Origin: a virus
Taxonomy: Duplodnaviria > Heunggongvirae > Uroviricota > Caudoviricetes
Length of the DNA: 64,000 bases
Reading direction: 5' to 3' (one strand)
IMG/VR virus record: IMGVR_UViG_3300009784_000001
Span: 54,418-118,417 of that record
Of the stretch, positions 4,795 to 19,971 are shown piece by piece. The notes under the pieces were generated by a model. The model was not told the DNA's origin and did no database searches. It saw only the letters and a list, made by a program, of their open reading frames with translations. The translations under genes and the position numbers were made by a program. Each line of letters opens with the position of its first letter. Within the stretch, counting starts at the first letter, position 1.

Positions 4795-4871
4795 AATTTA
4801 TATCTTGTCTAATCTTAAATTATATAATAATCAATAAAACTATTTTAACTTGTCTAAAATATGTTAAAAAA

Positions 4872-4899
4872 AGATAGGTAGCTACTTCATTCTACCTAT
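4872..4899 (-). terminator. intrinsic terminator hairpin (GATAGGTAG / CTACCTATC)
   Basis: A 9-bp perfect stem is followed on the minus strand by UUUUUUUAACAU. It forms part of the repeated intergenic cassette. Confidence 0.55.
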
Positions 4900-4933
4900 C
4901 TTCCCATCAAACAAACAAAATTAAATAAGATTA

Positions 4934-5311
4934 TTAAATAGTATTTTTAATCATTTCAATTGCATTACCTAAACTTTTTGCACAATCTTCCCAATAATTC
5001 ATTGCCAAGACTGGCTCAAAAATAATTTTACCTTTCCCATTGCTATATGAACGTTTACTAATGATGCTTTTCATTACTTTCATATTGAAAATTTTATCTC
5101 CTTCTTTTACAATAAGAGGATTAAAACTATTAATACCTACAGAAGTCCCATTAATACCTTTTCCTTCTTCTGTTAAAACATAATCATCACTTACCGATGT
5201 GGCAACAATTTCATTTTCATTGCTTTCTTTGAATTTCTGTTCAAACATTTCTTTCCTTTGTTGCATATCTTGCAAAACTTCTTCCCAATTAACTTTTGAT
5301 GAATCTTCCAT
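4934..5311 (-). CDS. hypothetical protein (125 aa)
   Basis: Track ORF. Confidence 0.5.
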   Translation of the reverse strand: MEDSSKVNWEEVLQDMQQRKEMFEQKFKESNENEIVATSVSDDYVLTEEGKGINGTSVGINSFNPLIVKEGDKIFNMKVMKSIISKRSYSNGKGKIIFEPVLAMNYWEDCAKSLGNAIEMIKNTI

Positions 5312-5375
5312 ATTGTTTATTTTTTTTTATACTATAAAGATAAGAAATCTATTTCAATTTTCCAAAGAAATAATG

Positions 5376-5672
5376 TTAAAATTTATCAAAGTTTGCAAAT
5401 CTATTCAAATAATCTAATCCTGCTGCCAATTTATTGAAATCCCCTTTGAAAATAATATTCCCAAAATTATCCTGGATTTCAATTAATCCTTCATTTTCAC
5501 GCCGTTTATAAGTATCCCCAAATCCCTCAAATACATCAAAGGTAAATTGTACATTCCTTCCATTATTGTCATTTGTTAAATTTACTCTTACTCTGCCTAC
5601 ATTACTCCTTATATTTTCATTTACTTTCCCTTTAACTCCCTGAACTGCTACACTTAATCTATTTGTTGCCAT
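5376..5672 (-). CDS. hypothetical protein (98 aa)
   Basis: Track ORF. Promoter at 5700-5756 lies upstream. Confidence 0.45.
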   Translation of the reverse strand: MATNRLSVAVQGVKGKVNENIRSNVGRVRVNLTNDNNGRNVQFTFDVFEGFGDTYKRRENEGLIEIQDNFGNIIFKGDFNKLAAGLDYLNRFANFDKF

Positions 5673-5699
5673 GTTATCTAATATTTAATTATTTGTTAT

Positions 5700-5756
5700 C
5701 ACAAAGATATGAAAAATTATCTAATCTATAAAGAAAAAAATGTTAATTAATCTTAA
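5700..5756 (-). promoter_or_regulatory. early promoter (same class)
   Basis: Plus strand shows cacaaagata at 5700-5709 and atgttaattaatcttaa at 5740-5756. Confidence 0.6.
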
Positions 5757-5766
5757 TATTATTTTG

Positions 5767-5780
5767 TACTCATTTGAGTA
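5767..5780. repeat. TACTCA-TT-TGAGTA inverted repeat, copy 1 of 6
   Basis: Exact 14-mer found 6 nt 3' of the stop codon of gene 5787-6029. Confidence 0.7.
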
Positions 5781-5786
5781 TATATA

Positions 5787-6029
5787 TTAAAATTCTTTTA
5801 CATCAAAACTGTCAATTACAACAATCTCCCCTATTTTATAAGGCTTCAAATAATTATCCCTGTAAGACTTCCAATAGGAATTGTTAAATTTATTTAAAGC
5901 CTTATCCATCCTTATTTGTTTATTTCTGTTGGATGGATAGTATTTTAACAACTTCCCTACCCTTGTGCAAATAACTGCAAAGTCCTCTTTGAAATATAAA
6001 ATTGTTGCTTTTTGTCCTATGTATTCCAT
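5787..6029 (-). CDS. hypothetical protein (80 aa)
   Basis: Track ORF. Confidence 0.45.
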   Translation of the reverse strand: MEYIGQKATILYFKEDFAVICTRVGKLLKYYPSNRNKQIRMDKALNKFNNSYWKSYRDNYLKPYKIGEIVVIDSFDVKEF

Positions 6030-6517
6030 TATTCTTTAATTTGAAATAGACAATCTATATATAATTTGCTTTCTTCTGCTGTATAAACTCCCATATCTAC
6101 CAAACATTGTGTAGAATAAGCTGCAAATACTATTCCACTCCAATCAAAATCTACACAATGAATGCCATCTTGTACTGTTAAAAATTGATATTTTTTAAGA
6201 AATTCCCAATAGGACAATTTTTTTGCTTTCTCATATTCAGCCCATCTCTTTTGTCTTTCATCCCATAGAAGATTATCATATCCCCCTCTTTTGATAAGAA
6301 AATTATAAGCCTGGTCATCAGCATAGGAAGACCAAAAATCAGTTTTAACACTTACTCGGCTACCTTGAAAACTATACAATTTATTGATAGCTCTTTTACA
6401 TTGATTAAGAAAACCATCCCAACCTTCAACACTTTGAGAATGGGTCGTGTAAATGTCCCTTTTCTCAAAATCTTTCATAAATTGTTTGCATTCCTTATCT
6501 GTCATATTGGCTATCAT
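6029..6517 (-). CDS. hypothetical protein (162 aa)
   Basis: Track ORF. Promoter at 6527-6583 lies upstream. Confidence 0.5.
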   Translation of the reverse strand: MIANMTDKECKQFMKDFEKRDIYTTHSQSVEGWDGFLNQCKRAINKLYSFQGSRVSVKTDFWSSYADDQAYNFLIKRGGYDNLLWDERQKRWAEYEKAKKLSYWEFLKKYQFLTVQDGIHCVDFDWSGIVFAAYSTQCLVDMGVYTAEESKLYIDCLFQIKE

Positions 6518-6526
6518 CTTTAATAT

Positions 6527-6583
6527 TACAAAGGTAAGAAAAAATTCCTACCTTTGCAAATATTTAATGTTAAATAATCTTAA
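6527..6583 (-). promoter_or_regulatory. early promoter (same class, TACCTTTG variant)
   Basis: Plus strand shows tacaaaggta at 6527-6536 and atgttaaataatcttaa at 6567-6583. Confidence 0.6.
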
Positions 6584-7152
6584 TCTTCAAAACAAAATGA
6601 GCTATCCTTAAAATATTCCCATTCATTAATTTCACTCATTTCAATAAAATTTTCTTCACTGAAATAATAATCATAATCCGCTTGAATAGCTTTTTGCCCA
6701 CTCTGGTAACATTCTCTAACAAGTTCCCCATAAGTCAAAGGACTATTTTTATAATCATTTAACCACTCCCAAAAAGGATCTAAAAAGACATCATCCATGC
6801 AGTATCCTGTCAATGGACAACTATATCTTTTTACATTGCTATTTTTATTTGTATATTCCTCTCCTTTGGTAAACTTTGAAATAACATCATTTACTTTCAA
6901 AAAGCTGTACAACTCTTCTCCTGTCAATTCTTCAATTTCTGTCAAGTTATAAACTCCATAAGTTACTGCAATTTCATCCCTTCTTAACCATATATAAGGT
7001 AAAGCATCTATGAAGGCTTTTATTGTTGCTTCATTATCCCTATTATCATAACTTTCATCTTTTTGAAAATTATAATGTGCCTTTTCAAAAGCCTTTGGAA
7101 ATAATTCCTTTAATTCTTTTGCTGTGTAAGCTGTTTTTTCTATTATTCTCAT
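6580..7152 (-). CDS. hypothetical protein (190 aa)
   Basis: Track ORF. Promoter at 7183-7239 lies upstream. Confidence 0.5.
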   Translation of the reverse strand: MRIIEKTAYTAKELKELFPKAFEKAHYNFQKDESYDNRDNEATIKAFIDALPYIWLRRDEIAVTYGVYNLTEIEELTGEELYSFLKVNDVISKFTKGEEYTNKNSNVKRYSCPLTGYCMDDVFLDPFWEWLNDYKNSPLTYGELVRECYQSGQKAIQADYDYYFSEENFIEMSEINEWEYFKDSSFCFED

Positions 7153-7182
7153 CTTATCTAATATTTAATTGTTGTTTGATAA

Positions 7183-7239
7183 AACAAAGGTACAAAATTA
7201 TATTGATACTACAAAAAAATTAATGTTAATAATTGTTAA
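7183..7239 (-). promoter_or_regulatory. early promoter (same class)
   Basis: Plus strand shows aacaaaggta at 7183-7192 and gttaataattgttaa at 7225-7239. Confidence 0.6.
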
Positions 7240-7598
7240 TTCGTTTTGCTTCTGATTCTATCAAATTCAACAATTTCATTAAAATTATTACCATCAATAT
7301 GTGGATATTTTATTTTTAAAACATCAATATCAACCATCAAATTATTCATTTCTTCATCAGAAAAGGAAGAAATTAATGCCAAATGTTTACTATCCCATTT
7401 CTTATAAAATTCATAAGCAGCACTATTTTTTGGCAATAACCTTTCCTGTGCCTGACCTCCCCCTGCATAATCAGTCCTTCTGTAATTTAATTGATTAGCA
7501 ACTGTGGAAAAATATTCGTCACTATTTTTTCTGTAAGACTGCCCTCCTACTTCCACTTCAAAAAATATCCTTTTCTTTACTCTAAAACTTACTGTCAT
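7236..7598 (-). CDS. hypothetical protein (120 aa)
   Basis: Track ORF. Promoter at 7635-7695 lies upstream. Confidence 0.5.
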   Translation of the reverse strand: MTVSFRVKKRIFFEVEVGGQSYRKNSDEYFSTVANQLNYRRTDYAGGGQAQERLLPKNSAAYEFYKKWDSKHLALISSFSDEEMNNLMVDIDVLKIKYPHIDGNNFNEIVEFDRIRSKTN

Positions 7599-7634
7599 AT
7601 TACCTAATTTTTATTTGTTTATTTTGTTAAGCAA

Positions 7635-7695
7635 TACAAAGATACAAAATCTTTTCCAATCCACAAAAGAAATAAAGTTAATAAAAGTTAAAAAT
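7635..7695 (-). promoter_or_regulatory. early promoter (same class)
   Basis: Plus strand shows tacaaagata at 7635-7644 and aagttaataaaagttaaaaa at 7676-7695. Confidence 0.6.
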
Positions 7696-7767
7696 TTTTC
7701 ATATTATATAATATTAAAATTTATTCAAAATTTATTATAGATATTTTAACATTCTTAAGAACTACAT

Positions 7768-7808
7768 AAAAAAACCGACCAAAAATAAACATTTCGATCG
7801 GCGGTTTT
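7768..7808 (-). terminator. putative intrinsic terminator
   Basis: On the minus-strand RNA, CCGAUC...GGUCGG forms a 6-bp stem followed by UUUUUUU (the plus-strand A-run at 7768-7775). It closes the ORF-free region. Confidence 0.45.
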
Positions 7809-8312
7809 ATCCTTTTATGATATAACTTTGCCTTCTACTACCTCATTATACTGGCAACAAAATTATAGTGCGACTCATAAAAGTTTCTTGGAATAAAACA
7901 GGAGGTTTATTATCTTTTCTTATCCCTCAAATTGCAGACGTTTCTTTATGATCCCGCCAAAAACACTTCACTTAATTTGCAATTACCTAATCAAATGATG
8001 GTTGTCAATTTCTTTTAATTGTTATGGATATTAATCATTATCATATGTGCCAAACTTTCAATACCCAATTAAAATTTCCCTTAATCTTCAACCAAATTCA
8101 AACACTGCCATCAGGTAGGCAACTAACAACCTTTGAACTTACAAGGCGTTCCAACTCTTTTATTTCACGACTTGGACTAATCGTGCCTTATCCAAATTAA
8201 TAACCCATTTTGTAAAACCCTAAAAACAACCAATGGAAATTTCAAATTATGGACTAACCACTTGGAGTTTTTGTTAAAATAACTTTGAATAAATTTTTTG
8301 CGCTGGTGTAAA
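7776..8312 (-). ncRNA. candidate non-coding RNA of about 530 nt, class unknown
   Basis: No ORF longer than 14 codons on the minus strand. A canonical early promoter (8320-8376) points into the region and a terminator sits at its far end. GC content is visibly higher than in the flanks, and there are local hairpins such as CACGAUUAGUCCAAGUCGUG. Confidence 0.35.
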
Positions 8313-8319
8313 ATCGTAA

Positions 8320-8376
8320 TACAAAGATATAATTTTATTTTTATATAACCAAACCTTTTATGTTAAAAATTCTTAC
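8320..8376 (-). promoter_or_regulatory. early-type promoter driving the ORF-free region
   Basis: Plus strand shows tacaaagata at 8320-8329 and tatgttaaaaattcttac at 8359-8376. The downstream side has no ORF. Confidence 0.55.
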
Positions 8377-8582
8377 TCCATTACCCATATAACCCCTTTT
8401 TCACTCCCTCTAAAAACATTTGAACAGGCAATAGGTTTATTTTCTATCTTATCAGAAAAATAACATCCACTTGCATCTGCTCTCAAAAAACAACAACCTT
8501 TACAAATGTTGCTTTCTGTTTCTATTGCTTTAACTTTTCCTGCAATAAACATTGTATTCTCATCAATTTTAATTACTTCCAT
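8373..8582 (-). CDS. small Cys-rich protein (69 aa)
   Basis: Track ORF carrying CKGCC and CS motifs. Confidence 0.45.
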   Translation of the reverse strand: MEVIKIDENTMFIAGKVKAIETESNICKGCCFLRADASGCYFSDKIENKPIACSNVFRGSEKGVIWVME

Positions 8583-8601
8583 ACATATAAACTATTTTAA
8601 T

Positions 8602-8615
8602 ACTCATTTGAGTAT
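8602..8615. repeat. TACTCA-TT-TGAGTA inverted repeat, copy 2
   Basis: Exact 14-mer found 6 nt 3' of the stop of gene 8621-8824. Confidence 0.7.
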
Positions 8616-8620
8616 GTTTG

Positions 8621-8824
8621 TTAAACTTTATAATATTCATCAGTTTTCAAAAATTGATTCCAATCATTTTGTGCCCAGAAACAGACCGCTCCTGCAAATT
8701 CTTGTTTTGAAAAAGGCAATGTCCTGTATTTCCATTCTGTTTTACCATTATATTGGACATATATTGTGAATGTTCTATTCCGCTTGTTTGAAGAAATTTT
8801 CAATATTTTACCTTTTACTTTCAT
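8621..8824 (-). CDS. small protein, family A (paralog of 14627-14833)
   Basis: The NRTFTI...YKYRT.PFS...DW..F....D.YY pattern is shared with the protein at 14627-14833. Confidence 0.5.
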   Translation of the reverse strand: MKVKGKILKISSNKRNRTFTIYVQYNGKTEWKYRTLPFSKQEFAGAVCFWAQNDWNQFLKTDEYYKV

Positions 8825-8827
8825 AAA

Positions 8828-9025
8828 TTAAAAAAATTTGCTTCTATCACCCAAAATATCAATTATTTCTTTATGACTTTTTCCATAAATGTTAATAGTT
8901 TTAACATCTGCATCTCCACCATTTCCATATCTATCAATTATATCCATTTCAAATTCATTCCAATTCAAAATGTCATAATCACTTTTCCTTTCAATATATG
9001 CTATTGCTAAATTATCTAATTTCAT
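8828..9025 (-). CDS. hypothetical protein (65 aa)
   Basis: Track ORF. Confidence 0.4.
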   Translation of the reverse strand: MKLDNLAIAYIERKSDYDILNWNEFEMDIIDRYGNGGDADVKTINIYGKSHKEIIDILGDRSKFF

Positions 9026-9027
9026 AA

Positions 9028-9237
9028 TTATCTTGTATATGGATATTTGTTTCTTATCAATTCTTTGAACATTCTTTTAGCTTCTGCAACACTATAACCA
9101 ATATATCTTTCTGTTACAGTAGTCCCAAACATAGTGTCCCAGCTTAAACTAAAACCATCAACCCTATGTAAGATTAAATAAATAGGACTTCCTTTCCAAT
9201 TCTTTTCAATGTTGTTATAACCAAATGTAAGTTTCAT
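9028..9237 (-). CDS. hypothetical protein (69 aa)
   Basis: Track ORF. Promoter box at about 9267-9324 lies upstream. Confidence 0.45.
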   Translation of the reverse strand: MKLTFGYNNIEKNWKGSPIYLILHRVDGFSLSWDTMFGTTVTERYIGYSVAEAKRMFKELIRNKYPYTR

Positions 9238-9325
9238 ATTATATAAGTTTTATTGTTTGTTTGTACTACAAAGGTAAGGAAAAAACTCCAGACTACAAAA
9301 TTTCTGGAGTTAATAAATGTTATTT

Positions 9326-9517
9326 TTACTTATAACCTATAACTCTCAATAATTTAGAAATTTCTTTATCTTCCAGAAGAAGGTAGTTTTCTTCTTTTAA
9401 TCTTAATTTTATAAAATCAAAATTACTTTTAATCCCTAATCTATTTAATGTTTCACTGTTACAATGATTACATTCATCTTGAAATTCTTTAATTTTTTCC
9501 CAGCTTGCTTTTTTCAT
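9326..9517 (-). CDS. hypothetical protein (63 aa)
   Basis: Track ORF. Confidence 0.4.
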   Translation of the reverse strand: MKKASWEKIKEFQDECNHCNSETLNRLGIKSNFDFIKLRLKEENYLLLEDKEISKLLRVIGYK

Positions 9518-9529
9518 ATTATCTAATAT

Positions 9530-9958
9530 TTAATATTTCAAATTTCTACATATCGGACCCATCCCTAATTCAATACTTTCAGGATCAGTTAATTCTCTAT
9601 CACATTTTGAACACCTACCACTGTGAAATAAACTCATTTCACTGTGAGGACTATATCTGTTAATGTATCTGTCAATAATAAATTGAAATGTTTTATAAGA
9701 TACTGCATCTTTTCCTACCCTGCTTTTTGCAGTTAAAATCAACTCCCATTTACCAAAATATTTTTTTAATATACCAATGTAAAGAAAAGTATCAGAAGAA
9801 TTTTTAACAGAAATAAAATAACTATTCTTATTATTGCTTGTTTCCTTTACCTTATAAGTAAAATGTTTTCCAGAACGCTCTGACCTTACTGTTAAAATGG
9901 CTCGCCCACCCAAAATAAAGTCCTTTTCAAACCCTTTCTTTAATTGATGCTGTTCCAT
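9530..9958 (-). CDS. hypothetical protein with C-terminal zinc ribbon
   Basis: CSKCD...GPIC motif. Promoter at about 9979-10038 lies upstream. Confidence 0.5.
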   Translation of the reverse strand: MEQHQLKKGFEKDFILGGRAILTVRSERSGKHFTYKVKETSNNKNSYFISVKNSSDTFLYIGILKKYFGKWELILTAKSRVGKDAVSYKTFQFIIDRYINRYSPHSEMSLFHSGRCSKCDRELTDPESIELGMGPICRNLKY

Positions 9959-10155
9959 TACTTATCTATTATTTATATTGCAAAGATACAAAAAATTATC
10001 TAATCTAAAAAATATATTTTGCTAATAAATGTTAAAAATTTGATAACCAGATATTGTTAAATCTTATTGAAAGTTATTACAAATATTTTAACTTATCTAA
10101 TTTTTGTTAAAAAAATTGTGTGCTACTTTTATAACACACAATTCATTTATGTTAA

Positions 10156-10401
10156 TTACCGTTTCGATACTGTGATAACATTATGACCACAATGCACAGA
10201 ATTATCAAAATATCTGTCCTTTAATATCACAATTCCTAAATCAATCTGATCTTCCAGAGAAGGCACTCTTTGCTCATTTGTTAATCGGAAATTCATATCC
10301 TTTACCCTGTTCCTGAAAAAATTGTAAGATATAATTTCAGGCTCTTGTAAAATTCTCATTATCCCTTCTTGCTCCAATAAACTAAAATACTTCGTTTTCA
10401 T
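10156..10401 (-). CDS. hypothetical protein (81 aa)
   Basis: Track ORF. Promoter at about 10438-10496. Confidence 0.4.
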   Translation of the reverse strand: MKTKYFSLLEQEGIMRILQEPEIISYNFFRNRVKDMNFRLTNEQRVPSLEDQIDLGIVILKDRYFDNSVHCGHNVITVSKR

Positions 10402-10490
10402 TTTATATAAGTTTTATTTGTTTGTATATAATCACATAACAAAGATAGTAAATATTATCTAATCTGCAAAATTATTTGTGTTAAAAAATG

Positions 10491-10721
10491 TTACATTTCA
10501 GAAATATATTGTTCAACTCCACAATCACTAAAATCTAATGTAATAGGATCCCCTGCACCTACAACATCAAACCAATATATATCCATAGGGACTAATTCTA
10601 AACCATTTCTACCAAGTTCCATTTTTGTTTCTTTCCTAAGAAATTTTACTGTCAAGGGAAAATCATCATACCCATCAAAATAATCATATTCTTTCCCTAT
10701 TATTAAATCTTTTGTTTTCAT
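10491..10721 (-). CDS. hypothetical protein (76 aa)
   Basis: Track ORF. Confidence 0.4.
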   Translation of the reverse strand: MKTKDLIIGKEYDYFDGYDDFPLTVKFLRKETKMELGRNGLELVPMDIYWFDVVGAGDPITLDFSDCGVEQYISEM

Positions 10722-10755
10722 TTTTCCTATTTGTTTATAATGTAAAAATAATAAA

Positions 10756-10989
10756 CTATTTAGTTATACTCTTTTGAGTGTTTCTCTTCCCTTTCTTACT
10801 CTTACGTTTTCCCTTTGAATTATATTTTATTATTTCCCCTTGCTTTGTTAATTCTCTTTTCTTTTCAGGTATGTAATTCCCCTTTGAAATATTCGCTTTC
10901 CTTTCTCCTGCCATGTAATATTCATTATCACCATTCAAAATTCCTGCACAATGCAATTGCATCATATATTGAGCCAATAACCCATCCAT
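10756..10989 (-). CDS. hypothetical Lys-rich protein (77 aa)
   Basis: Track ORF. A variant inverted repeat TACTCTTTTGAGTG lies inside its 3' end at 10767-10780. Confidence 0.35.
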   Translation of the reverse strand: MDGLLAQYMMQLHCAGILNGDNEYYMAGERKANISKGNYIPEKKRELTKQGEIIKYNSKGKRKSKKGKRNTQKSITK

Positions 10990-11009
10990 ATTTATAATGT
11001 TAATAAAAA

Positions 11010-11246
11010 TTAAATATCACTTAAAGTCCTTTCACCCATCGGAACACTTTCCATCTTATTAATTTCTTCAATCGTTAAACCATTAATAAATTGCTTTGTA
11101 CCTTTCAAATTACTGAAAAACATTGCATATTTATCATACCTTTTTGTTTCCTTATTCCAAAACTTTATCCCAGAAACAATCCCTGCTTTATAACTAATCA
11201 CTTCATAATTCCCTACTATACGTTTCATATTATATAAAATTAACAA
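11010..11246 (-). CDS. hypothetical protein (78 aa)
   Basis: Track ORF. Confidence 0.4.
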   Translation of the reverse strand: MLILYNMKRIVGNYEVISYKAGIVSGIKFWNKETKRYDKYAMFFSNLKGTKQFINGLTIEEINKMESVPMGERTLSDI

Positions 11247-11497: not shown

Positions 11498-11656
11498 CTT
11501 GTTTTCTTGTTTAATTATATACAAAGATACAAAAAATAATTTATATAATAATAAAAAACCATCTTAATAAAAATTAAAAAATGTTAAAATTTTCCCCCTG
11601 AATATATCTTAAATTATATAATCAATTAATATACATATTTTAACTTTATTAATAAG

Positions 11657-11682
11657 TATTAAAAAAAGGGACTTATGCCCCT
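11657..11682 (-). terminator. intrinsic terminator
   Basis: The minus-strand RNA reads AAAAGGGGCAUAAGUCCCUUUUUU, a stem followed by a U-run, at the stop of gene 11673-12098. Confidence 0.5.
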
Positions 11683-12098
11683 TTTAATATTAAGTGTGTT
11701 TTTAATCGCTTCATTTGCCGCTCCATATCATGGATGTTTTTTAATTCATTCCAATTTGGCTCATGTACTAAACGGAATTTAACTATCCCTGTATCAATAT
11801 TCCATTTGTAATCAATCATATCACTCAAATTTGCAAAATCATACCCCATTTCATTCAATATACCAAGCTCAAAACCAATCCCAACAAAATGTTGCCATAA
11901 GATAAAATTATAAGCTGAGTCCAATGTAGGCTCAATTTCATTATCATTTATAGCTTCACCAAGCAAAAACCAATCCAAATCAAATCGCTCTGCAAATTTA
12001 AGAAAAGATGTAATTTTATAGGAGGCAAAACCCCCAACTCCAAAATATCCCTCTAATAAATAATTAATATTACTCCTTTTCATATCATTTCCTCCCAT
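11673..12098 (-). CDS. hypothetical protein (141 aa)
   Basis: Track ORF. Confidence 0.5.
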   Translation of the reverse strand: MGGNDMKRSNINYLLEGYFGVGGFASYKITSFLKFAERFDLDWFLLGEAINDNEIEPTLDSAYNFILWQHFVGIGFELGILNEMGYDFANLSDMIDYKWNIDTGIVKFRLVHEPNWNELKNIHDMERQMKRLKTHLILKGA

Positions 12099-12241: not shown

Positions 12242-12323
12242 TGCTTTAATCTTTGTTTATTTGTTTGTAGTGCAAAGGTAATGAAATTAATTGATATATA
12301 CAAATTATTAATGTTAATAAAAC

Positions 12324-12512: not shown

Positions 12513-12519
12513 ATCTTTC

Positions 12520-12696: not shown

Positions 12697-12976
12697 ATTG
12701 TATAAGTTTTTATTATTTTTATATAACAAAGATAATATTTTTTATTGAATCTGCAAAATTTCTGAAGTTAATAAAAATTAATAAATGTTAAAACTTGAAA
12801 TCGTTCTTTTATGTTAATTTAATTCCTTTTAGAAAAAATTGAATTGATTTTCAATGAATTTTGTATGTTACTGAAAATGAGGGGCAAAAAATTTCAAATC
12901 ATTAAGTTTATTTTTTTGAAATCTTGTCCCTCTATTTTTCAAAATTGTTGTATGTGTAAAAAATTTTTCAAAAAAA

Positions 12977-12990
12977 TACTCATTTGAGTA
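12977..12990. repeat. TACTCA-TT-TGAGTA inverted repeat, copy 3
   Basis: Exact 14-mer about 40 nt 3' of the stop of gene 13029-13337. Confidence 0.7.
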
Positions 12991-13028
12991 TTCTTATCAA
13001 TAATTGATACAACAACAATAATTGATAA

Positions 13029-13337: not shown

Positions 13338-13351
13338 ATTTTTTTATTTTA

Positions 13352-13630
13352 TTAAAATTCAATTTTACAATTATATTCGCTTATTAATTTAGTAATTAAT
13401 TTATTATAATCCCAATCATATAGATTTTCGGATATAGTTATTTTTATTTTTTGATATTCCACTATTTGAAAATGAAGGTAGCCATATTGAACACCTTGCA
13501 AATATCCATAGCCATGTTCCTTTTGTAAATGTAGGATAGGAAACATTTTTGTTTCACTATATATTCTATCCATTAATTGAGAAATAGTATTTTTACCATT
13601 GTAATAAACTACATAATATTTTGTTTCCAT
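13352..13630 (-). CDS. hypothetical protein (92 aa)
   Basis: Track ORF. Promoter at about 13645-13700. Confidence 0.45.
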   Translation of the reverse strand: METKYYVVYYNGKNTISQLMDRIYSETKMFPILHLQKEHGYGYLQGVQYGYLHFQIVEYQKIKITISENLYDWDYNKLITKLISEYNCKIEF

Positions 13631-13904
13631 AACTTAATTATTTATAGAACAAAGATACAAATTTATTTTCATGTAACAACAAAGAATAAAGTTAATAATT
13701 ATTAAAATATGTTAATTTTTTTGGGATTATTGAAATATTAAAATAACATTATAAATCAATAAAACTATTTTAACTTTGTTAATTTTTTAACAAAATGATA
13801 GTAAGAAAAAAAAATTCCCATAGGAAAAAAATTATAATATGATTTTTACCTATTAAAATGATAATATTAAATATTAAAGATATTTTAACATTTCATTTAA
13901 TAAT

Positions 13905-13938
13905 AAAGAAAAAGGTCATTTTCACAAACAACCTTTTC
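13905..13938 (-). terminator. intrinsic terminator
   Basis: Stem AAAAGGT/ACCTTTT. On the minus strand it is followed by a U-run, 3' of gene 13958-14350. Confidence 0.45.
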
Positions 13939-13957
13939 CTAATTATTTGTAGTGATA

Positions 13958-14350
13958 TTAATTTATTTCCTGTAATTGTTCCAAACAGTCCCCAAACAAT
14001 CTCTCTACTGCTTTCCATTCTTTGCAGACTGCAAGGTACACTTTATAATCAGAACGGCTATCCATACAGTAACCAAAGTTATCACAAAAGGTTTCAAAGT
14101 CTTCTGGATCGTAGTGTGTTAATCCTGCAAGGATATCATACATTGTTGGGGACGTGTTTCCTTTTGCAAGGCATTGCCCAAATTTGAAACGATATTTTTC
14201 TCTGTTCCGTTCCAAAGTACAATTAAAAACATATCTGTATGTACCATCTTCTTTATCATCTTTGAAAAAGGAGGCATAGATAGATTTTCCTATTTTCAAA
14301 GTAACATTAAATTTCTTTGCAAATTTTTCTGCCTGTTTTTGATAATTCAT
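13958..14350 (-). CDS. hypothetical protein (130 aa)
   Basis: Track ORF. Confidence 0.5.
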   Translation of the reverse strand: MNYQKQAEKFAKKFNVTLKIGKSIYASFFKDDKEDGTYRYVFNCTLERNREKYRFKFGQCLAKGNTSPTMYDILAGLTHYDPEDFETFCDNFGYCMDSRSDYKVYLAVCKEWKAVERLFGDCLEQLQEIN

Positions 14351-14352
14351 TT

Positions 14353-14538
14353 TTATTTCAAATTAAATTGTTTAACAACATGATCCAAAGCGTTATTATA
14401 TATGCCACTTTCAATAAGATAAGCTCCAATTTCATTTCCAATTTCTTCCATTTTATTATCTGAAATGGAATTTGCATTTACTCCCAGTTCTTCTAAATCT
14501 ATCCTTTGTAAGGCAATTGTCCAAAAACATCTTTTCAT
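14353..14538 (-). CDS. hypothetical protein (61 aa)
   Basis: Track ORF. Confidence 0.4.
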   Translation of the reverse strand: MKRCFWTIALQRIDLEELGVNANSISDNKMEEIGNEIGAYLIESGIYNNALDHVVKQFNLK

Positions 14539-14626
14539 ATTATTTAATTTTTATTATTTGTTTGATAACACAAAGATAAGAAATTAATTTGATATTACCT
14601 AATTTATAATGTTAATAATTGTTAAA

Positions 14627-14833
14627 TTAAATTGGATAATAATCATCTGTATAACGCATAAAATCTACCCAATCATCACTTAACCAATTTTGAGCCTCTT
14701 CAAAATTACTTTGGGAAAAAGGCACTGTTCTATATTTATAAGTTTCTTGACCCTTTTGCATAGAAACAATTGTAAATGTTCTATTTTTCTTATTTGAATA
14801 AATTCTCCAATACAAACCATCAAAAACTTTCAT
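14627..14833 (-). CDS. small protein, family A (paralog of 8621-8824)
   Basis: Carries the shared NRTFTI/YKYRTVPFS/DW..F motifs. Confidence 0.5.
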   Translation of the reverse strand: MKVFDGLYWRIYSNKKNRTFTIVSMQKGQETYKYRTVPFSQSNFEEAQNWLSDDWVDFMRYTDDYYPI

Positions 14834-15011
14834 ATTATATAAGTTTAATTATTTACATAACAAAGATACAATTTTTATTTCATATAATTTAATTTATAAA
14901 GTTAATAATTTTTAATAAATGTTAAAAATAAAATTATATAATATCTTAAATTATATAATCAATTAATATATATATTTTAACTTATTTAATTTATGTTAAA
15001 AAAATGATGAT

Positions 15012-15038
15012 AACCTTTTTCACAAAAAGTTATCACCC
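15012..15038 (-). terminator. intrinsic terminator (12-bp perfect stem)
   Basis: Hairpin GATAACCTTTTT-CAC-AAAAAGGTTATC, followed on the minus strand by AUCAUCAUUUUUUU. Confidence 0.55.
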
Positions 15039-15264
15039 CACTATAAAATAATTAACTTACACGACTTATATTTTTTCAGCATATCGGCAACTGTGCTACT
15101 TACACCATAAATCAGGCTGTAATCTGAACCTGTTCCGCATCTGCTCTGTTTCTTTATATAAAAACTTAAAGGAATATAACATCATTCTTTTTACTTATCC
15201 CTGCCCATTTTAACAGCGTTAAAATTGATGTTTGCACTTGATAAAACCTTTAAATTATTTTGTT

Positions 15265-15504
15265 TTATAAATTGAAATATATATCAGGGTTATTTGACAC
15301 ATTATAGATATAAGAACCTTTCTTAATCAACAATGCACCTTTCCCATAGAATTGTTTCTTCATTCCTTTAACACTTCCAGACTTATCAAAATTTGGAAAT
15401 TCACTTAAATCTATTTGAGAAAAAGTAGGTAATATTTTAACAGGAAAATTCTGTGCGTCCCTTGCAAAAGGGTTATAAGGTATATTAATTGTTTTCATAT
15501 TCAT
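15265..15504 (-). CDS. hypothetical protein (79 aa)
   Basis: Track ORF. Confidence 0.4.
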   Translation of the reverse strand: MNMKTINIPYNPFARDAQNFPVKILPTFSQIDLSEFPNFDKSGSVKGMKKQFYGKGALLIKKGSYIYNVSNNPDIYFNL

Positions 15505-15667
15505 AATATTTACATTTATCTACTACTGTATTTTTTTCTATTGAAGAAGAACCCTTTTTATCTCTTTTAACAATGCAAAAACAATTAGTTGGCTCTGAAA
15601 AAATTGAATAAGTCATTCCCAATCTAAAATTTTTACATTCAATACATTTTATTTTTGTTATACTCAT
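15485..15667 (-). CDS. small Cys-containing protein (60 aa)
   Basis: Track ORF. Its ATG lies inside inverted-repeat copy 4. Confidence 0.4.
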   Translation of the reverse strand: MSITKIKCIECKNFRLGMTYSIFSEPTNCFCIVKRDKKGSSSIEKNTVVDKCKYYEYENN

Positions 15668-15674
15668 TTGAGTA
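15661..15674. repeat. TACTCA-TT-TGAGTA inverted repeat, copy 4
   Basis: Exact 14-mer directly 3' of the stop of gene 15680-15913. Confidence 0.7.
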
Positions 15675-15679
15675 TATTA

Positions 15680-15913
15680 TTAAAATGTTATTCTATTTTC
15701 TCTAAAGTACTTTTTGAAATTCGCCTTTACTTCTAACATAGTTACATGCTCCATATAAAACTTTCTACATAATTCTGTTTTTCCTCTCAAAGCTATATAA
15801 CCAATTACACTTTGTTCGTCCGTTCTGTACATTTCCAAATCAAACATTTTTTTATTTGGAATATCAACATCAAACACTTCAACTTTTTTAACAAAATTTT
15901 TTAAGTTAGGCAT
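15680..15913 (-). CDS. hypothetical protein (77 aa)
   Basis: Track ORF. Confidence 0.45.
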   Translation of the reverse strand: MPNLKNFVKKVEVFDVDIPNKKMFDLEMYRTDEQSVIGYIALRGKTELCRKFYMEHVTMLEVKANFKKYFRENRITF

Positions 15914-15920
15914 AATTGTA

Positions 15921-16166
15921 TTACTTTAATAAATCAGTTAATTTTGCTTCAAATTCTTTTTTTGTTACTTCTTCACCATTTACTTTATAGCTTTTCCAGG
16001 GTGATGGATTAGCATGTCTGTAATAATGTTTTGCAGTTTTGTATTCAAATTCATTTTCCTGTAAATTCAGGGTATATTTTGTCCCTGCACTCCCAGCGAA
16101 ACCCCAAGCGTTTGTGCTGTCAAACTTTTCTTTTGTTGCTAATTCTTTGAATCGTATCCAGTTCAT
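15921..16166 (-). CDS. hypothetical protein (81 aa)
   Basis: Track ORF. Confidence 0.45.
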   Translation of the reverse strand: MNWIRFKELATKEKFDSTNAWGFAGSAGTKYTLNLQENEFEYKTAKHYYRHANPSPWKSYKVNGEEVTKKEFEAKLTDLLK

Positions 16167-16251
16167 ATTCGTTTTATTTAATCAGTTAATTATTATAATA
16201 CAAAAGTAAGAAAAAATTATGTAATATCAAAATATTTCAAGTTAATAATTG

Positions 16252-16572
16252 TTAAAACCACTTTTTCAAATCTTTCTTTTTGCAATTTTGAGTAATTTGT
16301 GTATCTACTTTAATGTAATAACCAAAATTGTTATAAATGTTTTTGAAAGTATTAAAACCATCAAAATTCACGTTCAATTGTTTTGCTATTTCTCTAATTG
16401 CATCATATTCCGCTTGATTTCCATACCCATAGCGGAAATCCATATAGAATTCTTCTGCATTGTCCATTCCAAAATTTAACATTACTCTTGCAGCGTAATA
16501 GGTATTGCCATAAGTCTTATCACGCCATTCCCTACTTGAAATTATTACTGATCTTAATTCATTTGCTTTCAT
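16252..16572 (-). CDS. hypothetical protein (106 aa)
   Basis: Track ORF. Confidence 0.5.
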   Translation of the reverse strand: MKANELRSVIISSREWRDKTYGNTYYAARVMLNFGMDNAEEFYMDFRYGYGNQAEYDAIREIAKQLNVNFDGFNTFKNIYNNFGYYIKVDTQITQNCKKKDLKKWF

Positions 16573-16771
16573 TTTATTTACTTATTAATTATTTTATACA
16601 ACAAAGATACAAAAAATATTTTATATAACAATAAAGAATTATGTTAATAATTGTTAAAAAACTATGCAATTTAGTAATCTTAAAAAATATAATAAATGAT
16701 ATAGATATTTTAACTTTTCTAAAAAATGTTAAAAAAAGAGAACTTTCTCGTTCCCTCTTTTCAATATAAAT

Positions 16772-17296
16772 TTATTTTGTCATATAAAATTCCCACAAAT
16801 CCAGGTATTCTGTTCCCACTTCCTTTGCATCCGCTTCATTTTGCAAGTGTAGGCGAGAGGCGCAACCCGCATACGTACACGCATCCTGATAACCCGCATC
16901 ACAGAACCGAAAAGGAGAATCCAGAAAAAACCAAGGATACCATTTTCTTTCATCTTCGTCCTCCCAATTTGGGAACCATCCTTCATTCTTCGCTTCTACA
17001 ACTATTTCTAAAGCCCTTAGTACTGTTGCCCTATTGAGAGCCAAAACTTCAATTTGGTATTCAATATCATTCAAATAATTTTCTCCTTGAGCATCCTTTA
17101 ACATTTGCAAACGTTTTTCATAAAAATTCATAAACTTGCTAAAGCTCCTGCCCAATTTCTCAAAAGCCCATTTTGTTTTGATTAAACAAGGCAATTCTGA
17201 CAGTACCAAATCAGGAAAATTTTGTTCCAAAAATAACTTAAAATCCCCTACTGCTGTAGGATAAAATTTCTTTGCTTGTTCTAATGTAAAATTCAT
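16772..17296 (-). CDS. hypothetical protein, start corrected
   Basis: The track start at 17323 is TTG (MYII is the translated promoter box). The ATG is at 17296. Confidence 0.5.
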   Translation of the reverse strand: MNFTLEQAKKFYPTAVGDFKLFLEQNFPDLVLSELPCLIKTKWAFEKLGRSFSKFMNFYEKRLQMLKDAQGENYLNDIEYQIEVLALNRATVLRALEIVVEAKNEGWFPNWEDEDERKWYPWFFLDSPFRFCDAGYQDACTYAGCASRLHLQNEADAKEVGTEYLDLWEFYMTK

Positions 17297-17361
17297 ATTA
17301 TTTAATTTATTTATGATATACAAAGATAAGATAATTTATTGATATATACAAATTATATAAG

Positions 17362-17583
17362 TTAAAAATTGTTAATATTTTTATTTATATAAGCAATAAC
17401 TTTATACACAGGACGCAAGGATAATAGAAACAAGCCAAATACTGTAACAGCAGTCCAAATTGCAATGTATAAAACGTTCCATTCACAGATATTGACTAAT
17501 ACAGCCAATAAACCTATAATAATCATTCCTATTGAAATAATTGCACCTATCCATGCAAATATACTAAAACCTTTGAATTTCAT
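17362..17583 (-). CDS. small membrane protein (73 aa)
   Basis: Hydrophobic throughout. Confidence 0.45.
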   Translation of the reverse strand: MKFKGFSIFAWIGAIISIGMIIIGLLAVLVNICEWNVLYIAIWTAVTVFGLFLLSLRPVYKVIAYINKNINNF

Positions 17584-17598
17584 ATTTTATATAATTTT

Positions 17599-17874
17599 TT
17601 ATTTTAAATATTGCACACTATATTTATTACAACAAGCTAAAGGATTATTCAAAGTACCACGTATATGCTTTGCAGGAGCACTACAGCTTGCAGCTTTATA
17701 TATATTGCCTTCAAAATCTATAAAAGCATAAACAGACTTGGAGCCCCACATGTTTAAATATATTTTGAAATATTTTTTTCCTTTTTCAAATCCATAGTAG
17801 AAATTATCACCTTCCCCAAATTTTTTATTCAAAAGATTTTTTAACTCTACAATTTTCAAATTTATATTTTCCAT
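17599..17874 (-). CDS. hypothetical protein (91 aa)
   Basis: Track ORF. Confidence 0.45.
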   Translation of the reverse strand: MENINLKIVELKNLLNKKFGEGDNFYYGFEKGKKYFKIYLNMWGSKSVYAFIDFEGNIYKAASCSAPAKHIRGTLNNPLACCNKYSVQYLK

Positions 17875-18033
17875 ACTGTAATTATTTTATATAACAAAGA
17901 TACAAAAAAGTTTTTATATTATCTAATTTATAAAGTTAATAATTGTTAAATATTTTTACTGAAATTAAGAAAGTTAAAATACTTATATTATTAATAGAAT
18001 ATATTTTAACTTTTCACATTACATAAAAAAATT

Positions 18034-18097
18034 AAGGTAGTTCCGAAGCGAATTCCCCAATCTATTATGGGACTTGTATCAAGCGCAGAACTACCTT
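18034..18097 (-). terminator. intrinsic terminator (AAGGTAGTTC / GAACTACCTT stem)
   Basis: A 10-bp stem encloses a loop of about 44 nt, with a plus-strand A-run at 18025-18030 giving the U-run on the minus strand. It lies 3' of gene 18254-18601. Confidence 0.45.
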
Positions 18098-18253
18098 GTT
18101 ATTATTTAATATTATTATATTTTATCAAAATTATTATTGCGGAGGAAATCTTATTCTTTTCATATTTTATTCAATCTATTATATTATTAAATTATTTTTT
18201 ATATAAATTATTTATCGGCTGTCCCCTTATTTTTATCATATTTTCATTCAATT

Positions 18254-18601
18254 TCAAAGTAAAACTCCTGTATTTTGTTCCCAGCTTTGAGTACCTTCAG
18301 AATCTTTATTTATAATCTTTTCGATTTTCAACAAAGCATTTTTGAATAATTCACCCTTTGTAAAATTGCCCCTTGCTTTTTCTCCATTGTGTTTAATACC
18401 ACTTCTCACACCTCCACCCATGTAGTTTCTATACGCCCCAAACTTTGCCACAGGATAACCTAAAATATTGCCACAAATACCCAGTGACCAATTTCTACTA
18501 CCATCAAAGAAGACTGAGCCTTCAGGAACATTTAATTTGTTTTCAAGTGTTTCGATTACTTCTTCAATACTGTTTTCTCTTTTGAATCTGTAAGTTTTCA
18601 T
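18254..18601 (-). CDS. hypothetical protein (115 aa)
   Basis: Track ORF. Confidence 0.5.
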   Translation of the reverse strand: MKTYRFKRENSIEEVIETLENKLNVPEGSVFFDGSRNWSLGICGNILGYPVAKFGAYRNYMGGGVRSGIKHNGEKARGNFTKGELFKNALLKIEKIINKDSEGTQSWEQNTGVLL

Positions 18602-18687
18602 TTTATCTAATCTTTAATATTTGTTTTATTGTATTACAAAGGTAAGAAATTAATTTGAATTACACAATTTTTCAATGTTAATAATTG

Positions 18688-18849
18688 TTAATTTTCAAAT
18701 GTTACATCATCACTCCAATATTCACCTGCTCCATAAGGGCAAGCATTTGCTTCTTCTTGTGCTTCTGTTTCATCACCATATACCCCTCTAAAATTCCAAT
18801 TATTTTCAGGGTCATTATAACCAACTATATAAACTGTTCTTTGTATCAT
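18688..18849 (-). CDS. small acidic protein (53 aa), not in the ORF track
   Basis: Read as ATG at 18849 through to TAA, giving MIQRTVYIVGYNDPENNWNFRGVYGDETEAQEEANACPYGAGEYWSDDVTFEN. A promoter box lies at about 18880-18940. The plus-strand track ORF 18685-18891 is judged spurious. Confidence 0.4.
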   Translation of the reverse strand: MIQRTVYIVGYNDPENNWNFRGVYGDETEAQEEANACPYGAGEYWSDDVTFEN

Positions 18850-19080
18850 ATAATTTTATCTTATTTAATTTATATAATAATACAAAGATAAACATTTTAT
18901 TCCAGATAATCATACATAATGATGTTAATAATTGTTAAAATTTATACATAATATAATCTTAAAAAATATCTTATTTATTAAATATATTTTAACATTTAAC
19001 AATTGTATATAAAAAAAAATAGCTTTCAATACTTTCACTCTGTCCAGCATTAAAAACTATATTTGATTTTATTTAATATG

Positions 19081-19094
19081 TACTCATTTGAGTA
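19081..19094. repeat. TACTCA-TT-TGAGTA inverted repeat, copy 5
   Basis: Exact 14-mer about 58 nt 3' of the stop of gene 19152-19760. Confidence 0.7.
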
Positions 19095-19151
19095 TGCTGT
19101 AAGTATCCTTTCAAAGGTATGACACAAACATACTTTCATAAGTACAAAGTA

Positions 19152-19760
19152 TCAATCCATTCTATAACTTACATTTACATTTTTTATTCCATTTTGCCTG
19201 CAAAAATCAGCCACAAGATGCCAATAACAAAATTGCATTGATAGATCCTGCATCCATATTGCTCCAAAACCAGCACCCATTTTTGTTAATTTATTAATTA
19301 ATTCCGTTCCAAGTTTTTTTGCAACCATGTCTCTCACTTTGGTATCATTTTTGTTTGCAATGGAATTAATTTCAGATGCTTTTTTTGAATTTTTATTATA
19401 TATCATCCACACTTGAGCGCATCCATAACCAAAAAATACATATCTTTTACCATCATCTTTAACAAGTTTTGTATCATTTCCAATAACACTTTTTACCTTA
19501 TAAACTTCAGTATAAAAAGTATCTACAAATTTATCAAGGTTATCTTTCATGTATTGCATAAATTCACTTTCAATTCCTTTGTTTGCTTTTGGCTCTTTTT
19601 TAACAATTACCTTTGTTGTAACTGTTTTATTTTTATTAATACTTTTTCTAATAAGGATGGAGGCTTTTTTCTTTGTAATTCCATCATTAGAATAATCAAC
19701 ACCAGTGTGTTGCAGTAAAACTCTCAATTGTGCCTCTGTAGCAAAATCATTAATATACAT
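19152..19760 (-). CDS. hypothetical protein (202 aa)
   Basis: Track ORF with an ATG start. Confidence 0.5.
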   Translation of the reverse strand: MYINDFATEAQLRVLLQHTGVDYSNDGITKKKASILIRKSINKNKTVTTKVIVKKEPKANKGIESEFMQYMKDNLDKFVDTFYTEVYKVKSVIGNDTKLVKDDGKRYVFFGYGCAQVWMIYNKNSKKASEINSIANKNDTKVRDMVAKKLGTELINKLTKMGAGFGAIWMQDLSMQFCYWHLVADFCRQNGIKNVNVSYRMD

Positions 19761-19971
19761 ATTATTCGTGTTTCAATTATCTTATAGAACAAAGATACAA
19801 AATTATATTAATATACCAAAGAACATGATGTTAATAAAAATTAAAAAATATTAAAAAAATTATATAATTTGTAATATTAAAATATATCTATTATTTATTA
19901 TAACTATTTTAACTTATTTAAAATATGTTAAAAAAATGTAGTCATCTTTTGAATAACTACACTTTCATTTT

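Follow-up and report, generated by a model that had tools for sequence, protein, structure and literature searches.

A nine-base box conserved in the terminator-promoter cassettes of a predicted giant Bacteroidota phage is a candidate operator for a phage-specific regulator

The early gene array of the phage contig IMGVR_UViG_3300009784_000001 (IMG/VR) repeats an intergenic module of about 75 bp, placed between an intrinsic terminator and the next host-type promoter, and each copy carries the same nine-base box, GTTAAAATA. We analysed a 64,000-nt stretch of this record (positions 54,418 to 118,417), called the window below and numbered from its first base. The box is identical at 9 of 9 positions in 13 of 13 copies, keeps a nearly fixed distance to a partner element, does not depend on the terminator hairpin, precedes a promoter of a type found across the Bacteroidota, and is itself confined to this phage. 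We put at roughly 40% the probability that a phage-specific protein, either a winged helix-turn-helix (wHTH) protein encoded at the head of the array or another phage factor, binds it as the core of an operator- or enhancer-type site.

The sequence covered, 74 kb in all, comes from a 359,962-bp metagenome contig (ENA ERZ27257292:k141_1583612) that has two sibling contigs with identical proteins. A near-identity DNA search of its early region against 50,697 deposited phage records returned no match. The window has a GC content of 26% with a strong strand skew, and the minus strand carries nearly all of its genes. The ribonucleotide reductase shares ~42% identity with its counterparts in crAss-like and large Bacteroides phages. 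Because no Shine-Dalgarno sequences were found at start codons and the promoters carry TA(T/C)CTTTG, a match to the Bacteroidota -7 motif TAnnTTTG, the window is predicted to be a piece of a giant phage with a Bacteroidota host. Positions 1-21 kb form an array of small orphan early open reading frames (ORFs; 50-215 aa, most without a family match) that runs on for at least 10 kb past the window start. At 22-64 kb there are genes for nucleotide metabolism, methyltransferases and homing endonucleases, among others of this kind.

Counting both orientations, TATTTTAAC and GTTAAAATA have 20 exact matches in the window against 4.6 +/- 2.4 expected, a number reached in 0 of 100 shuffles. The composite pattern T6-N14-20-GTTAAAATA-N21-23-TTTAA, which adds the T-run and the partner element, matches 9 times against 0.02 expected. 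Twelve of the window copies belong to the intergenic module: eleven on the minus strand, at 4841, 7742, 10084, 11636, 13766, 13881, 14973, 16706, 18002, 18985 and 19905, and one on the plus strand at 21070, 5' of the sole plus-strand gene nearby. The 13th copy lies just beyond the window (L002:11003). The original prediction, made from the sequence alone, had described ten or more minus-strand cassettes with a recurring order of elements, which is borne out; eight of its ten core coordinates are exact and two are one base off (7742-7750 rather than 7743-7751, and 18002-18010 rather than 18003-18011). Both opposite-orientation copies that it named, 17973-17981 and 21070-21078, are real, and its list missed the copy at 13881-13889 as well as the one outside the window. 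Five further matches (5941, 15433, 35863, 53606 and 59614) fall inside ORFs or at their ends and are apparently chance occurrences.

Conservation of the box is sharp. The 12-mer AAGTTAAAATAT has 14 matches with at most one mismatch, 12 of them in cassettes (the eleven minus-strand boxes plus the partner element of the cassette at 18002), and 102 in total when two mismatches are allowed, where chance predicts 88.5. Since the two-mismatch count is at chance, the motif is all-or-none, without degenerate copies. The strict identity among copies exceeds that of the bona fide promoter units, and the box stands in diverged surroundings in which every hairpin stem is different and the flanks are ~60-75% identical. 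The copies were chosen by the 9-mer, which introduces selection bias; as a counter-check, 11 of the 12 terminator-then-promoter junctions of the early array carry the box, and none of the 14 promoters that abut an ORF has it just upstream. The box is confined to intergenic spacers at unit starts after a terminator, is always oriented as the downstream gene, and is absent upstream of the non-early genes at 22-64 kb.

Alignment and indexing of the copies gave the order of the module on the sense strand: a hairpin, T7, often AACAT, then TTAR, then (A)AGTTAAAATA(T), then after 21-23 nt the partner element TTTAA(G/T/C)AT (box2), and ~25 nt later the promoter. Around the box the conserved stretch extends to about 20 bp, TTAR-N5-TTAAAATA-t-n-T-n-TA. 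TTA(A/G) stands 9 nt before the TTAA of the box in 9 of 13 copies, and T7-TTAAC stands 10 bp before TTAR in 6-7 of 13. Box2 is present in all 13 copies, including the rearranged plus-strand one; it is a degenerate inverted copy of the box, perfect in the cassette at 18002 (GTTAAAATA-N20-TATTTTAAC), and it also equals one form, TTAAGAT, of the first upstream unit of the promoter. The TTTAAkAT unit is always 31 +/- 1 bp, or three helical turns, away from the box. Past box2, TTAA(C) units repeat every 10 nt, two or three in all; 32 nt further on stands TA(T/C)CTTTG. The end of the T-run is 16 nt from the box in six copies, 14-19 nt in four and 31 nt in one, and from the start of the box to the first promoter TTAA unit is 55-61 nt in all copies. 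Distances from the start of the box to the -7 box fall into two classes, 102-108 and 113-117 nt, the longer of which has a third TTAA unit, its promoters standing 10 nt further from the box. A distinct, sharply conserved element in a cassette of fixed geometry is thus what had been proposed and what we find, with details to amend: TTTTTTTAACAT, assigned to every cassette, is present with near variants in 6 of 11 copies; the gap from AACAT to AAGTTAAAATA, given as 6-8 nt, measures 9 nt; and ATTATATAAT, said to be frequent downstream, occurs in only about four copies, the conserved block at that place being box2.

The ten minus-strand cassettes that carry both terminator and promoter are laid out as follows. 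Cassette 1 (4740-4903) runs from a hairpin at 4903-4870 through T7 (4872-4866), the box (4849-4841) and box2 (4819-4815) to TTAAC-N5-TTAAC at 4794-4780 and the -7 box TATCTTTG at 4747-4740. In cassette 2 (7637-7812) the hairpin is at 7812-7774, T7 is followed by ATGTAG instead of AACAT, and the box (7750-7742), box2 (7718-7714), TTAA units (7691-7677) and -7 box (7644-7637) follow. Cassette 3 (9981-10144) has a hairpin at 10144-10113, T7AACAA, the box at 10092-10084, box2 as TTTAAC at 10061-10057, TTAA units at ~10035-10021 and the -7 box at 9988-9981; cassette 4 (11522-11684) has its hairpin at 11684-11665, T7AATAC, the box at 11644-11636, box2 at 11613-11609, three TTAA units at 11587-11563 and the -7 box at 11529-11522. 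Cassette 5 (13650-13859) begins with a weak hairpin and a T9 run at 13814-13806, 31 nt before the box (13774-13766), and continues with box2 (13742-13738), three TTAA units (13715-13691) and the -7 box (13657-13650). Directly upstream of it lies an extra copy of terminator, box and box2 without a promoter of its own (13853-13955, minus strand; box 13889-13881).

Three TTAA units are also found in cassettes 6 and 10, both of which have T7AACAT: in cassette 6 (14861-15037) the hairpin is at 15037-15006, the box at 14981-14973, box2 at 14950-14946, the units at 14925-14901 and the -7 box at 14868-14861, and in cassette 10 (19790-19964) the same elements are at 19964-19934, 19913-19905, 19881-19877, 19854-19830 and 19797-19790. 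Cassette 7 (16602-16764) combines a hairpin at 16764-16729 and T7AACAT with the box at 16714-16706, box2 at 16684-16680, TTAAC-N5-TTAAC at 16657-16643 and the -7 box at 16609-16602. The hairpin of cassette 8 (17895-18063) is composite and followed by T7; its box (18010-18002) faces the perfect inverted box that serves as box2 (TATTTTAAC, 17981-17973), with TTAA units at 17949-17935 and the -7 box at 17902-17895. Cassette 9 (18883-19060) has a hairpin at 19060-19019, T9, the box at 18993-18985 after a second GTTAAAT, box2 at 18963-18959, TTAA units at 18938-18924 and the -7 box at 18890-18883. On the plus strand, the copy at 21070-21168 lies in a divergent control region, serves the wHTH gene and has no upstream hairpin; its box (21070-21078) is followed by TTAA units at +22, +32, +43 and +53 and by the -7 box TACCTTTG at 21161-21168.

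The strong stem-loops noted at the cassettes are real, with folding energies (dG) of about -8 to -16 kcal/mol, only the copy at 13766 being weak. Of ten folded, nine have z scores of -2.8 to -6, the exception being 18002 (z -0.4), and each folded hairpin is followed by a T-run of 5-9, in most cases T7, so that the cassette hairpins are predicted to be good intrinsic terminators. Two boxes, at 21070 on the plus strand and at L002:11003, have no significant hairpin (z -0.6 and 0.1). Conversely, an intrinsic terminator at ~12990 (12960-13010, minus strand; GAAUACUCAAAUGAGUAUUU followed by U7, z -2.6), ahead of the promoter at 12734, has no box. In view of these cases the box need not accompany a terminator, nor does it require a hairpin, and the possibility that it is simply the 3' flank of a repeated terminator falls away, the more so as the stems differ while the box is invariant. 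No Rfam family reached gathering thresholds in the window, and none reached E <= 1 in 7700-8400.

Two other recurring sequences were seen. The sequence TACTCAAATGAGTA has six exact minus-strand copies against 0.03 expected (5767-5780, 8601-8614, 12977-12990, 15661-15674, 19081-19094 and 20466-20479), all on the sense strand at or shortly past the 3' ends of early ORFs. The repeat can form a 5-bp hairpin (UACUC-AAAU-GAGUA), which may work as an attenuator or as a signal for RNA stability or processing; its copy at 12977, followed by U7, is the terminator without a GTTAAAATA box. On the minus strand, a stretch of ~530 nt without ORFs (7775-8318) separates a host-type promoter from the terminator of cassette 2 and contains CTCCAAGTGGTTAGTCCA. 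The latter recurs in an ORF-free gap outside the window (L002:10650-11000) and in a phage contig that is ~58% related by protein identity (L380:3577-4104), and these stretches may represent a phage non-coding RNA family.

About 30 promoters of one architecture, TTAAC-N5-TTAAC followed at a fixed 32 nt by TA(T/C)CTTTG, lie in 1-21 kb (examples at 20404-20458, 18637-18691 and 2528-2582). We distinguished 14 type A promoters, which abut the preceding ORF without a terminator or box just upstream, from 11 type B promoters, which follow a terminator and carry the module. Scanning with TTAAS-WWTTW-TTAAC-N31-33-TAYYTTTG found matches in more than 118 phage-contig stretches of IMG/VR (loci L123-L240), from 19% to 52% GC and with several contigs carrying many matches; those listed stand ~10-50 nt upstream of an ATG. 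In species-representative genomes the pattern was found in at least 120 stretches (loci L384-L503), and nearly all titled records were Bacteroidota, those listed including Bacteroidales, Prevotella/Segatella, Flavobacterium, Cellulophaga, Chryseobacterium and Cytophagales. With a TAnnTTTG -7 element and the upstream TTAAC-N5-TTAAC, the downstream early promoter has the Bacteroidota primary-sigma form and is predicted to be read by the Bacteroidota host RNA polymerase; that the TTAAC-N5-TTAAC repeats are host-read is argued by their phylum-wide presence in genomes and in many phages. For the same reason the wHTH protein was rejected as the reader of these repeats at -60/-50, the element being shared by hosts and unrelated phages across the phylum. 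TTAAC is enriched 2.5-fold on the sense strand of the early array. Matches to a sigma-70-like pattern are at chance (145 against 148 expected), and TTGACA-N17-TATAAT is not the promoter consensus here.

A literature search found no description of the TTAAC-N5-TTAAC promoter element, and one for a Bacteroidota UP-like element or for the phage promoter P_BfP1E6 gave nothing usable. For the crAss-like phage phi14:2, Drobysheva et al. (bioRxiv 10.1101/2020.03.07.982082) mention that the promoters which host RNA polymerase uses have an 'extended tripartite motif', in keeping with the present pattern. Going by that mention, the phi14:2 middle promoters resemble the cassette promoter in being served by a Bacteroidota host RNA polymerase and in having, upstream, a third conserved block in addition to the -35-like and -10-like elements. 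The likeness concerns the downstream promoter of the cassette and not the GTTAAAATA box, and the mention does not establish that the third block is TTAAC-N5-TTAAC. As a practical signature, TTAAC-N5-TTAAC 32 nt before a -7 box could help in assigning hosts to phages and in finding strong promoters.

The box, by contrast with the promoter behind it, appears to be an add-on specific to this phage. Within 130 nt upstream of promoters of the same type, GTTAAAATA was found at 0 of the 118 listed phage promoters and 0 of the 121 listed bacterial-genome promoters (239 in total). In other phages the terminator stands 14-50 nt from a promoter of this type, and no such module separates the two. Strict cassette patterns gave no match in IMG/VR. 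Looser box patterns, run against metagenome contigs and IMG/VR, gave among the matches listed only single, random-looking ones, none with a promoter, and the metagenome pattern was unspecific. Relatives reached through a 228-aa protein of the window (loci L378-L383, homologues of at most 62% identity) have neither TTAAC-repeat promoters nor the module.

Taken whole, the cassette appears to be a Bacteroidota counterpart or variant of the promoter-early stem-loops (PeSLs) of T4-like phages, whose unit, repeated among orphan genes, joins a stem-loop and an AT-rich region to a strong host-type early promoter (Arbiol et al. 2010, PMC2839356; Comeau et al. 2014, PMC4122927). The two share a repeated intergenic terminator stem-loop with an AT-rich region and a strong host-type early promoter, the stem-loop here lying directly upstream of the promoter in 11 minus-strand copies; they share a concentration among small orphan early genes, all copies falling in the 1-21 kb array; and in both the stems vary between copies, with mosaic relationships. 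They differ in that the promoter here is not of the sigma-70 consensus type of PeSLs; it is of the Bacteroidota type, with TTAAC repeats, TTTG and TAnnTTTG in the arrangement TTAAC-N5-TTAAC-N32-TA(T/C)CTTTG. The spacer between stem-loop and promoter, ~110 bp, is much longer here and contains the invariant phage-specific box and its partner box, elements not described for PeSLs. PeSLs were moreover defined by recombination, indels and mini-circles, and the present cassette is known from the copies of one genome. Stem-loop cassettes also occur on middle promoters (PmSLs) in the T4-like phage nt-1 (PMC4122927).

That a 9-12-bp block stays invariant where the non-paralogous sequence around it has diverged speaks for selection acting on a sequence-specific interaction, as do its fixed three-turn spacing to an inverted partner and its restriction to this phage. 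Binding by a phage-encoded factor, one of the possibilities raised originally, is the best-fitting reading and is the one we favour. The wHTH protein that had been named as a candidate (21200-21517, plus strand, 105 aa) proves to be a full OmpR/PhoB-type winged-helix effector domain with no receiver: it matches Pfam PF00486 (E 1.5e-16, 60.6 bits against a cutoff of 26.2) and, over residues 12-104, the DNA-binding domains of PhoB, ArlR and others in the PDB (E 1e-8 to 1e-7). It is the only recognisable DNA-binding regulator among the ~50 window proteins scanned, and its gene, divergently placed at the head of the array, has the box in its own promoter. A word-based search for relatives found only the protein itself, no IMG/VR locus encodes one, and among 1.84e9 representatives the best are 49-60% identical, none above 60%. 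Directly 3' of the gene, at the border of two gene blocks, lies a G/C-rich island, CCCCCCTCAAGGGGGAGGGGGGAGGAGAGGGG (21536-21600), which may be a strong bidirectional terminator or insulator.

We propose that the phage inserts the module between each intrinsic terminator and the following host-type promoter, and that a phage-encoded regulator would bind the box and its partner units. Once bound, it would modulate the first promoter of each terminator-delimited early unit, by activation or by later shut-off. The most likely regulator would be the receiver-less OmpR/PhoB winged-helix protein, and the box ahead of its gene would then provide autoregulation. Proteins of the OmpR/PhoB family bind phased repeats, ~10-11 bp apart, upstream of or overlapping promoters, as at pho boxes, the OmpR F1-F4 sites and the PmrA YTTAAK-N5-YTTAAK boxes. 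The phage arrangement resembles such operators in having a winged-helix domain of the family encoded beside the array and several short A/T-rich units with a TTAA core, ~9-10 bp apart, at each promoter. It differs in that the protein has no receiver domain, the best-conserved unit occurs singly and points the opposite way to the units next to it, the units are 9 bp apart instead of 10-11 bp, and the site is ~105 bp from the -7 element.

Several observations weigh against an operator for a phage protein. The box is ~105-115 bp upstream of the -7 element, far for a simple activator or repressor, and its helical phasing relative to that element is not significant (Rayleigh-type test, p ~0.1). The TTAR-to-TTAA spacing of 9 bp is below the 10-11 bp typical of OmpR/PhoB sites. 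The conserved units share a TTAA core with the promoter units recognised by the host, and a host factor could therefore bind them. Finally, the conservation of the box was seen among copies in one genome, no related phage with the module having been found, and the part of the genome seen was 74 kb of 360 kb.

The original prediction favoured tandem promoters of different classes and compared the box to a T4 late promoter element. That comparison does not hold up: GTTAAAATA is not TATAAATA, the latter occurs at chance in the window (36 against 31.5 expected), and the box is missing from non-early genes. Among the ~50 window proteins scanned, within the 74 kb covered, no gp55-like late sigma factor was recognised. 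What the box does have in common with the middle (MotA/Mot box) and late (gp55, TATAAATA) promoters that T4 places in tandem is that a short phage-specific box could give early genes a second mode of expression; it differs from them in its sequence, in the lack of a host-type -7/-10 core after it and in its absence from other gene classes, and no MotA, AsiA or gp55 homologue was identified in the window. In its general form a second promoter would have the box at -35 and TAnnnTTTAAkAT, 16-18 nt on, at -10/-7. Its reader would be either host RNA polymerase aided by a phage activator bound to the box, much as PhoB acts from pho boxes and MotA from the Mot boxes of T4, or else a sigma factor or RNA polymerase of the phage, and transcripts from this promoter would begin ~65-75 nt upstream of the start site of the early promoter. 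We consider such a factor-dependent promoter unlikely and retain it because of its promoter-like geometry and its restriction to unit starts. The module is bipartite with a tightly fixed spacer, TA-nnn-TTTAA lies 16-18 nt past the box in 9 of 13 copies, a sigma-70-type scan scores TTAAAA-N18-TATAAT at 4848-4819 and TTAAAA-N16-TATATT at 16713-16686, and TTAAC/TTAR units stand 10-20 nt upstream of the box in an UP-like placement. It occurs only at the starts of terminator-delimited units, where a later-class promoter would be needed and internal genes could be reached by read-through, and an OmpR/PhoB domain is encoded next door. Yet a Bacteroidota primary-sigma promoter, defined by a TAnnTTTG -7 element 19-21 nt after a TTTG -33 element, is not what the module offers: no TAnnTTTG occurs at the host spacing past the box, and box2, reading TTTAAG, TTTAAT or TTTAAC, lacks the G of the host -7 motif. 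Box2 instead equals the TTAAGAT variant seen in about 5 of the 14 type A promoters and also in other phages, which argues that it is an upstream unit and not a core element. An nhmmer profile of the type A promoters aligns to the module only at single TTAAC units (E 0.3-1.5), and on that result we also rejected the idea that the module is a degraded second copy of the complete early promoter. No non-early gene at 22-64 kb has the motif upstream, the ~50 proteins scanned included no recognisable sigma factor or RNA polymerase, and the copy at 13881 would yield a transcript of only ~40 nt before a T9 terminator-like site. A specific version, in which the wHTH protein at GTTAAAATA redirects host RNA polymerase to a second, factor-dependent promoter before every terminator-delimited early unit and before its own gene, seems unlikely; it would amount to a MotA/PhoB-like 'middle mode' carried in mobile terminator-promoter cassettes. 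We know of no such temporal switch described for Bacteroidota phages.

We also think it improbable that a host factor reads the box as an architectural element far upstream of the promoter, in which case it would be an inverted copy of the host-recognised TTTTAAC promoter unit. Here the box together with T7AAC, TTAR and TTAAGAT would act as UP-like or bent DNA that recruits the alpha C-terminal domains of RNA polymerase, or a nucleoid protein, and boosts the promoters that follow terminators. The strongest objection is the empty count at the 239 comparable promoters elsewhere. In favour of this reading, the reverse complement of the box with its flanks, ATATTTTAACTT, is close to the promoter's second unit, (A/T)TT(A/T)TTAAC(A/T)T. 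T7AACAT aligns to that second unit in the profile, not significantly, and both the phylum-wide, hence host-read, TTAAC-N5-TTAAC and the enrichment of TTAAC on the sense strand speak for a host reader. Against one, GTTAAAA or TTTTAAC occurs in only 5 and 8 of the 118 listed phage promoters, with no positional preference; the terminators that other phages keep close to the same kind of promoter do without the module; the box is conserved more strictly than true promoter units; and -105 to -125 is outside the usual reach of alpha C-terminal domains, as known from E. coli. That the box has no function of its own, its identity reflecting gene conversion or recent spread of mobile or recombining PeSL-type cassettes, we regard as quite improbable. 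Mosaic kinship among copies fits it (11636 and 14973 share ~30 nt past the box, 4841 and 13766 share 20 nt, and 7742 and L002:11003 are ~85% alike), as do the unrelated flanking genes, reminiscent of PeSL and ORFan modules (PMC2839356), and the several homing endonucleases of the phage. Gene conversion would, however, homogenise tracts and not a 9-12-bp block amid unrelated stems and flanks that are 60-75% identical, and the box is kept in the rearranged plus-strand copy, whose module is otherwise shortened. Tandem gene duplication was rejected as the origin of the repeats, since only one paralogous pair was found among the 62 early ORFs and the genes next to the cassettes are otherwise not paralogues. 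Very improbable indeed is a signal associated with the terminator or acting in RNA, which would tune termination or anti-termination or mark a processing site in read-through transcripts. The box stands exactly 16 nt from the T-run in six copies, and in 6-7 copies the complementary UUUUAAC and GUUAAAA form an inverted repeat, 7 nt long and spaced by 13 nt. The potential stem consists of 7 A-U-rich pairs and is very weak, and the box, lying past the termination point, would be transcribed only once termination had been decided. Neither the two boxes without a hairpin nor the terminator without a box suits an RNA signal, and the plus-strand copy at 21070 is in a divergent promoter region with no upstream gene on the same strand.

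Should the box be a regulator site or a second promoter, it would offer a first handle on temporal gene control in giant Bacteroidota phages, which are uncultured and for which the literature searched describes no regulatory circuit. A small, portable DNA-binding protein with a 9-12-bp operator could then serve as an orthogonal switch for Bacteroides engineering. If the box were only architectural or a recombination remnant, the finding would be an ordinary one, a Bacteroidota counterpart of the T4-type terminator-promoter cassettes.

Beyond the early array, selfish elements are abundant in the window (52865-56857, 60254-61933, 39521-40474 and 51552-52781). The ribonucleotide reductase is 1330 aa long, includes LAGLIDADG/Hom_end domains and has an intein-like look; a thymidylate synthase homologue of 559 aa has its match in two separate stretches; and free-standing LAGLIDADG and HNH endonuclease genes are also present. 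At 50495-51515 and 50750-52767, two adjoining ORFs of 167 aa and direct repeats of 148-239 nt with 65-74% identity (families D9 and D12) point to tandem paralogues beside an HNH endonuclease gene. Unusual cargo (29518-30744, 38572-39534 and 41163-42266) comprises a protein with a PARP catalytic domain (ADP-ribosyltransferase), a homologue of Thg1-like tRNA-His guanylyltransferase and a ClpX-like AAA+ ATPase, the last of which has counterparts with ~50% identity on many IMG/VR contigs, among them several of 250-550 kb. The uncharacterised 228-aa protein used to find relatives (25138-25824) marks a clade of related large phages: it shares 36-62% identity with 68 homologues, of which some lie on contigs of 135-368 kb and several come from neighbouring ENA accessions (ERZ272572xx, ERZ27257300).

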